Of a stretch of 12,782 nt of DNA, positions 3 to 11,633 are shown piece after piece. Each line of letters starts with the position of its first letter. Within the stretch, counting starts at the first letter, position 1. The translations under genes and the position numbers were made by a program. The notes under the pieces were generated by a model, which saw nothing but the letters and a program-made list of their open reading frames with translations, was not told the origin of the DNA and did not search any database. This DNA comes from a virus (taxonomy: Duplodnaviria > Heunggongvirae > Uroviricota > Caudoviricetes): IMG/VR virus record IMGVR_UViG_3300020721_000006. One strand, written 5' to 3'.

Positions 3-68
3 GTTACGGTAAGGTGGTGTATATCGAGAGAAGCTGATGTTAATTGGTTTGTTTTGAGGTGGTCATGA
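3..68 (+). CDS. Array A gene A0, 3' end only (...EADVNWFVLRWS)
   Basis: Read manually; TGA 66-68 overlaps ATG 65; truncated by window edge. Confidence 0.75.
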   Translation, partial: VTVRWCISREADVNWFVLRWS

Positions 69-256
69 AAACATTTTATATGGAAGATTTTCCAAGAGTA
101 GTAGAGGCTGCTTCCAGTCTTGGTTATGCTGAATTTTTAAGAAGAGATGGATTTAAAACTACAGAATATATTGGTAATAAGTTTGAAGTTAGTTATTGTC
201 CATCACATTGTATGAGTGAAGAAGAATATACTTGGTTTGTTTTGAGGTGGTCATGA
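65..256 (+). CDS. A1, 63 aa WFxLRWS-tail protein (D[FY]PKF/GYK subfamily)
   Basis: ATG in ATGA after GAGGTG; ends SEEEYTWFVLRWS. Confidence 0.85.
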   Translation: MKTFYMEDFPRVVEAASSLGYAEFLRRDGFKTTEYIGNKFEVSYCPSHCMSEEEYTWFVLRWS

Positions 257-495
257 AAGAACGTGAAATCAAATTAGGGGGTAGGTGGCATAGTTGTCCA
301 CGTTGTTGGCAGAATTTTATTATAGCATTGGATTTCCATGATGATGAATCTGACATTCAGAGAGATAGTAAAATACGAAAAGAGTTATTAAAGTTTAATG
401 CTAAAAGAATTGGTGATTTTAGAAGTGATGACGGTACAACAATACTATTTAAAACCCCAGTAGATAAGACTTGGTTTATATTGAGGTGGTCATGA
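253..495 (+). CDS. A2, 80 aa WFxLRWS-tail protein (paralogue of A33)
   Basis: ATGA-coupled; ends TPVDKTWFILRWS. Confidence 0.85.
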   Translation: MKEREIKLGGRWHSCPRCWQNFIIALDFHDDESDIQRDSKIRKELLKFNAKRIGDFRSDDGTTILFKTPVDKTWFILRWS

Positions 496-692
496 TAGAG
501 ATGATAGGAATAATAGCTAGTGATGATCAGTATTCATATAGAATTGGGTTTAGTGATAGACCTAAAATTCCATTAGAAGTAAGGCAATGGTGTCGAGAAA
601 ATTTTAATGAAGAACGATGCTATGTTGGAACATGGACTATTTGGTTTAAGACCTCTGCTGAGTTAAATTGGTTTATATTGAGGTGGTCATGA
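492..692 (+). CDS. A3, 66 aa WFxLRWS-tail protein (WCxxxF subfamily)
   Basis: ATGA-coupled; QWCRENF, ends NWFILRWS. Confidence 0.85.
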   Translation: MIEMIGIIASDDQYSYRIGFSDRPKIPLEVRQWCRENFNEERCYVGTWTIWFKTSAELNWFILRWS

Positions 693-901
693 ATATACTA
701 GAAATACCATTCTATACAGAATTGGATAAGAAGTTAGAAGAAATGTGGCGTCAAACTGAAGGCACTCCAGATGAATGGATTGATTTTATAAAAGAATTAG
801 ATAAAAATATAATAGGTGTAGAAGATAGAGCACAGAAAATTACTACTATAACATTTAGTAAACCAGAACATATAACTTGGTTCTTATTGAGGTGGTCATG
901 A
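689..901 (+). CDS. A4, 70 aa WFxLRWS-tail protein (paralogue of A14)
   Basis: ATGA-coupled; IPFYTELDKKLEE, ends TWFLLRWS. Confidence 0.85.
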   Translation: MNILEIPFYTELDKKLEEMWRQTEGTPDEWIDFIKELDKNIIGVEDRAQKITTITFSKPEHITWFLLRWS

Positions 902-1149
902 TTGACAAAATTATATTAAAATGTTCTGGGGCACACCGTGATCCACGCAAGGGTGTAGATTATTATATAGTTTCTAGGAGTAATCATTTTTATTGGATGT
1001 ATGATGAACAGCACACCTGGTGTGTAGAAACATTTGGTGAGCGAGGTGATTTTTCATCTAGTGATATATGTAGATGGTATCATAATGGTTCTGTTTTTTA
1101 TTTTTTAAATGAAGAAGATTGTAATTGGTTTATATTGAGGTGGTCATGA
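898..1149 (+). CDS. A5, 83 aa WFxLRWS-tail protein (WCxxxFG subfamily)
   Basis: ATGA-coupled; WCVETFG, ends NWFILRWS. Confidence 0.85.
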   Translation: MIDKIILKCSGAHRDPRKGVDYYIVSRSNHFYWMYDEQHTWCVETFGERGDFSSSDICRWYHNGSVFYFLNEEDCNWFILRWS

Positions 1150-1358
1150 TTGTATCGTGGAGTGATTTACCGTTATCTGTGCAAATGCATTTAGATGATA
1201 TCTCTGGATATACTAACACTAGTATTTTAACAAAAGAATGGATTAGTAATTTAAATGTGTGTTTGGAACCATTCACGGCAACATTTGATTTTGATGATGA
1301 TATTATTTACTTTGACAGTGAAGAATGTTATACTTGGTTTATATTGAGGTGGGCATGA
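1146..1358 (+). CDS. A6, 70 aa WFxLRW-tail protein (paralogue of A22)
   Basis: ATGA-coupled; WSDLP...LEPF, ends TWFILRWA. Confidence 0.85.
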   Translation: MIVSWSDLPLSVQMHLDDISGYTNTSILTKEWISNLNVCLEPFTATFDFDDDIIYFDSEECYTWFILRWA

Positions 1359-1540
1359 AAAGAATAAAGTTTGATACATATGATTTCCCAAAATTCATTG
1401 ATGCAACGGATGATATTATTGGGTGGAATGAATCTTTTATTTCACAAGGGTATAAGACTTATCAAAATGATTATAATAGTTATCCCAGACACAGTTTGAG
1501 TGAAGAAGAATATACTTGGTTTTTATTGAGGTGGTTATGA
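1355..1540 (+). CDS. A7, 61 aa WFxLRW-tail protein (D[FY]PKF/GYK subfamily)
   Basis: ATGA-coupled; ends SEEEYTWFLLRWL. Confidence 0.85.
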   Translation: MKRIKFDTYDFPKFIDATDDIIGWNESFISQGYKTYQNDYNSYPRHSLSEEEYTWFLLRWL

Positions 1541-9754: not shown

Positions 9755-9999
9755 AGTTTTTAGAATTTAGAATAGCACCTATGGAAAATTGGTATAGCTA
9801 TGAACTACCTGAGTATAATCTTACTGAGTTAATAGAATGGTGTGATAACCACAGGAGTGATTTTAACTATAGTATATATTGTATAAAACCACTAAAAGAT
9901 AAGATTGAATATAAACACTTATGGACACGGTATGACTTTGCAACATTTTATTTTGAAAATGAAGCTGATCGTAATTGGTTTTTATTGAGGTGGTCATAA
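9751..9999 (+). CDS. A26, 82 aa WFxLRWS-tail protein (GTG start likely; ATG 9736 is the alternative)
   Basis: GTGA overlap with GGAG upstream; ends NWFLLRWS. Confidence 0.8.
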   Translation: MKFLEFRIAPMENWYSYELPEYNLTELIEWCDNHRSDFNYSIYCIKPLKDKIEYKHLWTRYDFATFYFENEADRNWFLLRWS

Positions 10000-10211
10000 T
10001 GGAAGAAAACCAAGTAATAGTAGATTTAACGGACTATCCAAAATTTATGAAAGAATGGTTAAACTCTAATTATTCGATAGAACAAACATTAAAAAATTAT
10101 GGTATTAACTCTGCCTTAAAATTACCATCTCTGCTTGTAACCGCAAATTTACGGCTTAGATATGGTATGAATAAACCTGATTATACTTGGTTTGTTTTGA
10201 GGTGGTCATGA
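9999..10211 (+). CDS. A27, 70 aa WFxLRWS-tail protein (DYPKF subfamily)
   Basis: TAATG overlap. Confidence 0.85.
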   Translation: MEENQVIVDLTDYPKFMKEWLNSNYSIEQTLKNYGINSALKLPSLLVTANLRLRYGMNKPDYTWFVLRWS

Positions 10212-10489
10212 TTAAAAGTAATAAACAACATATAGTAATGTTACCATTTTCTATGGGCGAATTTAAAGGATTACACCCAGGGACATATGTAGAAGTAATA
10301 GAACATCCATTTTTATCTATAGGAAGTTCATATTCTATTCTTAAACCTGACATACATCTATGGTTAGATAATGCAATTGGGTCAGACTCATGGGATTTTG
10401 GATTTAGTAGTAGTGAAGGTGAATATTATATATGTTTTGATAATGAAGCACATAAGAATTGGTTTTTATTGAGGTGGTCATGCAATTAG
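10208..10489 (+). CDS. A28, 93 aa array A protein, tail extended to WFLLRWSCN
   Basis: Junction TGA changed to TGC; stop TAG at 10489. Confidence 0.85.
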   Translation: MIKSNKQHIVMLPFSMGEFKGLHPGTYVEVIEHPFLSIGSSYSILKPDIHLWLDNAIGSDSWDFGFSSSEGEYYICFDNEAHKNWFLLRWSCN

Positions 10490-10725
10490 AGATTATAGAC
10501 AATTCTCAGATAGATATTTACTATCCATTTGGTGTGCGAATACCAATCGAACCACATGACTTACCGTATAATAAAACCCCACGAGCTGAAATTACAGAAT
10601 GGTGTAATGATACATTCGGTAATATGTTTGATGATGAATTTGATTATAGATGGAGGCGTTGGGGTTCATTCTTTTTCTTTCGGGATGAAGTAGATCGTAA
10701 TTGGTTTCTATTGAGGTGGTCATGA
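10480..10725 (+). CDS. A29, 81 aa WFxLRWS-tail protein (WCxxxFG subfamily)
   Basis: ATG at the junction position; EWCNDTFG. Confidence 0.85.
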   Translation: MQLEIIDNSQIDIYYPFGVRIPIEPHDLPYNKTPRAEITEWCNDTFGNMFDDEFDYRWRRWGSFFFFRDEVDRNWFLLRWS

Positions 10726-10952
10726 AATTAAGTGTAGTAAATAAAAATTATGGAATACATATATGGTGGAACAATTTTATTGACAGTTTAGTATGCGATT
10801 CCGGTACAGATAATCAGATCAATGCAAGTGAATTTAACAAGCTAATTCTATCTGAGTTGGCAATCTATGGTGGATCAATGAAATTACCATATATGGAAAT
10901 TGAATTTGATGATGAAGCAAAAGCAACCTGGTTTATATTAAGATGGTCATGA
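10722..10952 (+). CDS. A30, 76 aa WFxLRWS-tail protein (close paralogue of A32)
   Basis: HIWWNNFI...YGGSMKLPY. Confidence 0.85.
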   Translation: MKLSVVNKNYGIHIWWNNFIDSLVCDSGTDNQINASEFNKLILSELAIYGGSMKLPYMEIEFDDEAKATWFILRWS

Positions 10953-11176
10953 AAAATATTGATGTAATGATGTTTCCAAAGTTTGTAATGCACTGTAACC
11001 CTTTCTTTGAACAAGATGAAACCCTAACAATAACATATTGTGGGCGTAGTGGGATACGTGCATATCATATACTTATGCGTAAGTTTGGGTATAAATCTGC
11101 AGATATTGGTCCACCTGGTAAGAAATATCAATTGAGCGAGGAAGATTATACTTGGTTTATATTGAGGTGGTCATGA
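10949..11176 (+). CDS. A31, 75 aa WFxLRWS-tail protein (FPKF/GYK subfamily)
   Basis: ATGA-coupled; ends LSEEDYTWFILRWS. Confidence 0.85.
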   Translation: MKNIDVMMFPKFVMHCNPFFEQDETLTITYCGRSGIRAYHILMRKFGYKSADIGPPGKKYQLSEEDYTWFILRWS

Positions 11177-11397
11177 AATTAAGGTTATCAGATAATAATG
11201 GCTTACACATATGGTGGTACAATTTTATTTACAGTTTAATAGTTCCTGATATGGAACCTCCCAAAGATAAAGATGAATTCCACAAACTAATTCAAGATGA
11301 GTTGGCACGCTATGGTGGATCAATGAAATTACCATATAAGGAAATAGAATTTAATGATGAAGCAAAAGCAATCTGGTTTATATTAAGATGGTCATGA
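11173..11397 (+). CDS. A32, 74 aa WFxLRWS-tail protein (close paralogue of A30)
   Basis: HIWWYNFI...YGGSMKLPY. Confidence 0.85.
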   Translation: MKLRLSDNNGLHIWWYNFIYSLIVPDMEPPKDKDEFHKLIQDELARYGGSMKLPYKEIEFNDEAKAIWFILRWS

Positions 11398-11633
11398 AAG
11401 AAAATGAATTAGAATTAGTTGGTGGTTGGAAGATGCTACCACAATGTTGGAGAAACTTTGTATCAGAATTTCAGTCAATTAAATTGACTGCTGATGAGCG
11501 TGAATGTGCAATTAGGGATAAATTAGTAGAGTTTAATGCCACCAGAGAATATCATGCAAGAGGATGGGGGAACTCAACGCTAGTGTTTAATACTCCAGCA
11601 GATAAGACTTGGTTCTTATTGAGGTGGTCATAA
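11394..11633 (+). CDS. A33, 79 aa WFxLRWS-tail protein (paralogue of A2)
   Basis: LPQCWRNFV...TPADKTWFLLRWS. Confidence 0.85.
   Translation: MKENELELVGGWKMLPQCWRNFVSEFQSIKLTADERECAIRDKLVEFNATREYHARGWGNSTLVFNTPADKTWFLLRWS

Follow-up and report, generated by a model that had tools for sequence, protein, structure and literature searches.

Protein and ribosome-binding constraints probably fall on different codons of a gene junction repeated through a freshwater phage array

We analysed a 12,782-nucleotide stretch (the window) of the Caudoviricetes record IMGVR_UViG_3300020721_000006, which belongs to a freshwater metagenome contig of 284,302 bp; the same contig is present in many assemblies. 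The plus strand carries three runs of small genes (60-115 residues) ending in W-F-x-L-R-W-S-stop, and the runs are separated by an 11-gene array of repeat proteins and a non-coding RNA unit. Run 1 starts about 560 nt to the left of the window. Between positions 45 and 11633 there are 34 copies of the junction at these gene ends, numbered A0-A33 (Table 1). Counted from the motif Trp codon, the Shine-Dalgarno (SD) core lies at +11 and the next start codon at +20. A start is found at this standard offset in 29/34 junctions, with 27 true four-base stop/start overlaps and two of the form TAATG. The double use of this element as protein end and RNA signal is real but in all probability split by position, with Phe, Leu and Trp serving the protein and the Arg codon mostly the RNA signal.

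A first-pass annotation of the window had proposed that the junction is at once a protein motif, a ribosome-binding site and a stop/start that couples translation. Its counts were reproduced: the codon at the Arg position is AGG in 27 of the 34 junctions, AGA in three (A23, A30, A32), AAA in two (A11, A13), AAG in one (A22) and CGA in one (A25), the exceptions being those it had named, although the tally includes A8, which is out of frame. AGG accounts for 27/31 Arg codons within junctions against 16/165 outside them (binomial p 9e-24), and TTG for 25/30 Leu codons against 36/251 elsewhere (p 6e-17), both p values being computed over paralogous copies that are not independent. A 14-mer junction core occurs 24 times at one mismatch or fewer against 0.03 expected, and the full 9-mer GAGGTGGTC is present in 20/34 junctions, directly before ATG or GTG in 18. 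Overall, the junctions share 81% identity over about 27 nt, and their median exact run is 11. They contain no stem-loop terminator, and perfect sigma-70 promoters lie only at run ends (8761, 11639), none inside the repeated junction. The frame of the next gene is open 21-24 nt upstream through every junction (e.g. 232-255) and contains in-frame TTG and GTG starts that gene callers sometimes choose.

A DNA scan of viral contigs yielded 115 loci, from which duplicates and junctions matching the search pattern were removed. To avoid circularity, the family was redefined on residues -14 to -2 only, upstream of the SD (628 matches, one in reversed controls), and split by the distance from the Arg codon to the next start, 8-12 nt (coupled) or at least 13 nt. 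In the 280 coupled junctions of the first set, left after that removal, the codons of Phe(-12), Glu(-9), Asp(-7) and Thr(-5) are at background and Phe(-3) shows a slight bias (0.82 vs 0.76), while Leu(-1) is G-ending in 221/261 and Arg is AGG in 195/226 against a background of 8%. Across the family defined by its upstream residues, AGG encodes 220/261 Arg residues with a start 8-12 nt away and 20/57 of those at 13 nt or more, and G-ending Leu codons number 259/312 when coupled and 42/103 when uncoupled. Sampling one junction per locus gave AGG fractions of 0.81 vs 0.42. The bias is alike before family genes (131/147) and non-family genes (60/74), and in a small sample of eight clusters whose near-identical genes differ in coupling, three lost GAGG together with coupling and none gained it. 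Because silent-site bias is limited to the third-base G of Leu, the AGG of Arg and the ATGA overlap, the DNA constraint amounts to GAGG plus the overlap and no longer word. As the bias tracks the presence and distance of a start, it behaves as an intragenic SD site for the next gene, which bears out the proposed ribosome-binding site.

The same annotation had drawn a 9-nt pairing with the 16S tail reaching up to the ATG. The consensus of the bacterial 16S tail stood in for that of the host in the duplex energy; a 9-bp duplex with one G.U reaches -14.1 kcal/mol against it. The spacer after the 9-mer is zero, whereas the GAGGTG core leaves four bases to the ATG. A TC follows the core in 80/164 junctions with GAGG and 36/100 without (p 0.055, with shares reduced by leaving out exact pattern matches), and the overlap fixes the post-core codon at its third base. 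Pairing beyond GAGGTG is therefore not clearly supported, and a core of five to six bases placed four bases before the ATG is the safer reading. Extended start-proximal SD duplexes occur in Staphylococcus aureus, where the spacer is lengthened, unlike in the window junctions, and such pairing is sterically hindered in Escherichia coli-type ribosomes (PMC13009471).

The ATGA overlap suggests that translation is coupled at the junctions. No conserved hairpin was found in five junctions examined on eight strands (z -0.43 to 1.35; DNA parameters), and with a strong site and no such hairpin de novo initiation is as possible as strict coupling. The arrangement resembles the termination-reinitiation pairs of Huber et al. 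2019 (PMC6728339), in which a four-base stop/start overlap is likewise preceded by an SD in the last codons of the upstream gene. There, SD removal lowered reinitiation in 4/5 E. coli pairs at ATGA overlaps, and the SD contribution ranged from essential to none. Unlike those pairs, one stereotyped junction recurs here 34 times in 11.6 kb and biases an amino acid (Arg) across a family; no occluding structure was found at the window junctions, where coupling is putative.

At the residue level, Phe(-3) is present in 97/98% of coupled/uncoupled junctions of the upstream-residue-defined set, an aliphatic residue at -1 in 100/96% and an aromatic at +1 in 96/89%; Arg stands at 77/46% and Arg-or-Lys at 95/72%. 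Since the conserved residues upstream use background codons, the constraint on them is that of the protein. A profile search gave 25 matches in the cultured Sinorhizobium phage Phosso (PV764938.1) and one in Pseudomonas phage Paride, and a profile was needed to find Phosso, as tblastn of a single member against cultured phages returned no match. About 40 Phosso open reading frames (ORFs), two of them probably spurious, end in F-K-L-x-(W/F/I) (loci L156-L163). Their Arg position is occupied by R in 11, T in 11, A in 7 and S in 4, AGG encodes 3/11 of the Arg residues, and GAGG occurs in 2/40, though 14 have a start at the same distance. Phosso thus has the peptide motif without the SD, so it was largely at the RNA level that the freshwater lineages came to use Arg. 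Paride_0044 (OR805295.1 36670-36885) is a probable family member (E 4e-4), and the Phosso and Paride members are annotated as hypothetical where checked. The idea of a protein motif consequently survives at Phe(-3), at Leu(-1), at the +1 aromatic and in F..E.D further upstream, all held at background codon use and in uncoupled junctions too, and is weak for Arg.

Models of two subfamilies are confident (predicted local distance difference test, pLDDT, 93.6 and 92.4), and in both the conserved F..E.D..xFxLx(W/F/Y) end forms the last strand and helix, completing a compact alpha/beta domain. Core packing or a binding face may account for its conservation. The 67-residue A21 model has whole-length matches to dozens of unnamed phage and viral proteins, and a mid-protein Trp is found in at least 90% of window members. 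The bodies split into many sequence clusters, yet two subfamilies align over 50 columns, and a single predicted fold is likely for all members. One subfamily profile collects 3,738 clusters at 50% identity, and up to 95 members occur in one 94-kb contig. The family is phage-only as far as tested and uncatalogued: Pfam, PHROGs, NCBIfam and PADLOC hold no family for the domain, the PDB gave no significant match by sequence profile or Foldseek (none at E 0.001), the ESM Atlas gave unnamed viral clusters only, and no description of the small-gene family was found in the literature. A related-locus search with A31 as query gave no match. VIA structure comparison returned generic alpha/beta matches only, with Z up to 6.4 and 4.0. 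An RRM-like RNA-binding role, considered from the strand-helix pattern, is unsupported, the best Z of 6.4 in the RRM/ACT/ferredoxin-like comparison being tied among many generic alpha/beta plaits. Homodimer prediction scored 0.01, which is evidence neither way.

The genes are modular. Gene A7 is identical at 176/180 nt to a gene in another phage (contig G005, locus L073), where both neighbours differ; other stretches shared with the window are 65-75% identical there, and the A7 identity (98%) begins and ends in junctions. About 60/113 near-identical family gene pairs from different contigs have another downstream gene, and identity in near-identical pairs drops from 0.81 to 0.43 right after the ATGA. 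Tails are exchanged too, with LQQ or LRL replacing LRWS on otherwise 98-99% identical genes. A short-tailed variant, LQQ-stop or LKQ-stop, has the ATGA overlap without an SD (L073:3439-3890, 4141-4559; L087), and one gene occurs with either tail in L065 and L087. The RecA family is present in all three near-complete relatives and tyrosine integrase in none of them. In swapped pairs third-position mismatch is 0.215 near the junction vs 0.163 upstream, a gradient that is not significant (p 0.08; against the control p 0.31) as a sign of crossovers inside the junction. Selection that keeps genes intact likewise produces edges at gene ends, and the junction may be the cause of the modularity. The description of the cassettes as plug-and-play therefore holds in that genes change neighbours with sharp edges at the junction, but turnover is not significantly above that of other small ORFs and crossovers within the junction are not established.

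We propose that the genes all belong to one small alpha/beta domain family of T4-related jumbo phages, as paralogues that have diverged. With the final helix ending the protein and the genes lying head to tail, Arg-AGG, following Leu-TTG, became fixed in freshwater lineages at the free position next to the last aromatic. As the codon statistics show, this writes GAGGTG, and four bases further on comes an ATG overlapping the stop codon. Each gene would carry the initiation signal for whatever comes next, probably by termination-reinitiation aided by the SD, and the junction of about 27 nt and 81% identity may be a passive homology patch for UvsX/RecA-type recombination. Recombination there could delete, duplicate or import whole genes with expression intact, which fits the observed edges. 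A T4-type major capsid protein is found in complete relatives carrying the same junction. Among cultured phages, one relative, G001, comes closest to Phosso and to jumbo phages of Wroclawvirus, Mimasvirus and Asteriusvirus, with DNA identities of 69-71%, a placement of that relative and not of the window's own contig.

Several observations weigh against this explanation. Of the 34 window junctions, eight have no SD of -8 kcal/mol or stronger; in six of the eight an intact-looking start nevertheless stands at the standard offset, and there the SD must be dispensable. AGG also stays above the 8% background in uncoupled junctions, which calls for ancestry or missed starts, and the paralogues and related contigs in the codon counts are not independent. 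Neighbour turnover affects 25/50 family genes and 26/72 other small ORFs at the same loci (p 0.14; a crude control). Three subfamilies align by profile mainly over their last 15-21 residues, and the models differ in the middle. A more far-reaching version, in which SD selection fixed Arg(AGG) at a free helix position in thousands of phage proteins and the junction actively drives integrase-free exchange of single effector genes between distant jumbo phages, each gene a self-wiring cassette, we consider rather unlikely.

The full form of the first-pass proposal, that every L-R-W-S position is needed at both levels, with a 9-nt duplex to the ATG, Arg and Trp as a functional motif and a universal plug, appears improbable. 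Lys or Arg is retained in 72% of uncoupled junctions, the seven window cases without AGG all have Arg or Lys, Trp tends to be found together with GAGG (140/164 vs 73/100, p 0.016) and the S. aureus duplexes offer a precedent; against this, the Arg position is free in Phosso, LQQ-stop and LRL-stop tails replace LRWS on nearly identical genes, TC is not clearly enriched, and extended pairing needs the longer spacer that is missing here. We consider it very improbable that the DNA likeness is kept mainly as a recombination site, homologous or integron-like and site-specific, homogenised by exchange and resembling an SD incidentally. The sharp mosaic edges, A7 included, and the raised mismatch near the junction would suit such a site. 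Silent sites upstream of the SD are at background, however, which leaves no long conserved DNA word, the bias follows the distance to the start codon, hairpin and tyrosine integrase are both absent from the material examined and the mismatch gradient is not significant; a recombination site as the cause of the codon bias is largely refuted.

The C-terminal peptide might also be a portable address tag, a packaging, export or docking signal on unrelated bodies. The many sequence clusters, inter-subfamily profile matches mostly confined to the tail and the capsid-protein fragment in A17 would fit such a tag, whereas the tail is predicted as an ordered strand and helix (pLDDT 87-97) that completes the compact domain in both models, and the mid-protein Trp, the 50-column alignment and the whole-length viral structure matches speak for bodies that are related. 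We rate the tag as improbable too, and prefer the positional split of one paralogous family.

Compared with the PeSL of T4-type phage hyperplastic regions (Arbiol et al. 2010, PMC2839356; Comeau et al. 2014, PMC4122927), the junction is likewise a repeated element ending in SD and start in variable ORFan regions, lies at edges of insertion, deletion and replacement, and belongs to an array headed by a terminator hairpin and sigma-70 promoter (L122:9110-9160). Unlike PeSL it is coding, lacks promoter and stem-loop and joins paralogues of one family. Integron cassette arrays differ in having an attC-like single-strand hairpin at each boundary, of which nothing similar appeared in the five junctions folded; the tyrosine integrase of such arrays is missing from the three near-complete relatives searched. 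Conserved boundary (linker) sequences proposed for phage mosaicism, as summarised in PMC3029335, are also short shared gene-edge sequences usable by general recombination; unlike the linkers of that summary, the homology here would be a by-product of protein helix and SD, with no intergenic linker. Bacillus phage G carries about 35 zinc-ribbon genes, a lineage-specific expansion (Iyer et al. 2021, PMC7824862), which is similar in that a single jumbo phage has tens of small paralogues whose role is unknown, whereas the domain here is different, uncatalogued and more numerous in a single contig. The junction is thus a stereotyped case of ordinary overlapping-gene translation by a textbook mechanism; what is new is the codon-by-codon split of constraint and the cultured outgroup. 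Such an array is a natural experiment separating RNA-level from protein-level constraint codon by codon, and it warns that a residue which looks invariant, like the Arg of LRW, can owe this to a ribosome-binding site overlapping its codon. Members in cultured Phosso, and probably Paride, open the family's function to bench work.

Table 1. Runs, junctions and genes of the small-gene family in the window
Feature	Position	Strand	Description
Run 1	1..3800	+	Junctions A0-A17 of small-gene family
Run 1 motif Trp codons, A0-A8	45, 233, 472, 669, 878, 1126, 1335, 1517, [1725]	+	
Run 1 motif Trp codons, A9-A17	1937, 2131, 2313, 2554, 2764, 2997, 3206, 3436, 3777	+	
Run 2	7393..8764	+	Junctions A18-A23, Trp codons 7672, 7857, 8093, 8293, 8502, 8741
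Run 3	9273..11633	+	Junctions A24-A33; first gene start uncertain, 9273 or 9339
Run 3 motif Trp codons	9471, 9722, 9976, 10188, 10460, 10702, 10929, 11153, 11374, 11610	+	
Type junction A1	233..256	+	Eight codons W-F-x-L-R-W-S-stop; SD core GAGGTG 244-249; ATG 253-255 overlaps TGA 254-256
Gene A7	1355..1540	+	Beta-alpha-alpha-beta-alpha in the model, pLDDT 92.4
Junction A8	1725..1748	+	One T short in T-run, stop at 1735-1737; SD core and ATG (1745) retained
Junction A11	2313..2336	+	Lys AAA, without SD core
Gene after A11	2333-2577	+	Frameshifted at A-run directly after its ATG
Junction A13	2764..2787	+	Lys AAA, without SD core, ATGA retained
Gene A17	3456..3800	+	Family domain, with a fragment of T4-type major capsid protein at the N terminus (Gp23, E 6e-8)
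Gene A21 (type member)	8113..8316	+	Beta-alpha-beta-beta-alpha in the model, pLDDT 93.6; motif is strand 48-53 and helix 56-66
Junction A22	8502..8525	+	Lys AAG, weaker SD, ATGA retained
Junction A23	8741..8764	+	End of run 2; AGA, without SD core or downstream ATG
Junction A25	9722..9754	+	Wholly recoded (CGA), peptide retained, tail +3 residues, next start GTG 9751
Junction A30	10929..10952	+	AGA
Junction A32	11374-11397	+	AGA
Junction A33	11610..11633	+	End of run 3; full 9-mer, TAATG into 38-codon ORF

The frameshift at A8 is shared by the window and each of the seven other assemblies checked; being out of frame, A8 keeps the DNA and has lost the peptide. This homopolymer frameshift (T-run, 1720-1737) and that of A12 (A-run, 2333-2345) are fixed in all assemblies checked and may represent pseudogenes, programmed slippage or phase variation. 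A recent duplication links A30 with A32 (89% over 134 nt), so their two AGA codons count as one event and the exceptions are fewer independently than listed. The stop codon of A23 falls within the -35 hexamer of the promoter at 8761-8789, and a perfect sigma-70 promoter (11639-11667) follows A33. Gene A25 contains a perfect 16-bp inverted repeat with a 1-nt centre (9577-9609). The junction of A17 leads into an unrelated repeat-protein gene at 3797, and relatives G001 and G004 also have short genes with Gp23 fragments like that of A17.

About 600 nt left of the window, at L122:9110-9190, a terminator hairpin, a sigma-70-type promoter and an SD lie directly 5' of the first gene of run 1. From the terminator and promoter at the array head, the proteins are most likely an early-expressed, fast-turnover host-interaction repertoire. 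An ART-PolyVal gene (PF18760) sits just upstream (L122:8005-9075). The second tandem family, at 3797-7403, consists of 11 genes of 23-residue repeats, which we take to be MORN-like and for which Pfam gave no significant match. Its own junction is a stereotyped 8-nt overlap with weaker, variable SDs, and stereotyped junctions therefore follow from tandem paralogy in general. In L116 this repeat-gene array is 650 nt shorter (9 genes) and the flanking family runs are invariant. Strain variants of the window phage are more than 99.9% identical across the family runs and so provide no within-population test. The non-coding unit at 8761-9275 comprises the perfect sigma-70 promoter at 8761-8789, an Rfam Polynucleobacter-1 RNA at 8818-8970 (62.7 bits, E 1e-11) and, beyond it, a further non-coding stretch of about 280 bases that runs to a terminator at 9248-9265; its transcript would be three times the length of the Rfam model. 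The RNA is a weak hint at a Burkholderiales host. A 5'-3' deoxyribonucleotidase-like gene (phrog_2643, E 1e-19) occupies 11862-12389, and L116 has a second NT5C gene 5 kb further downstream.

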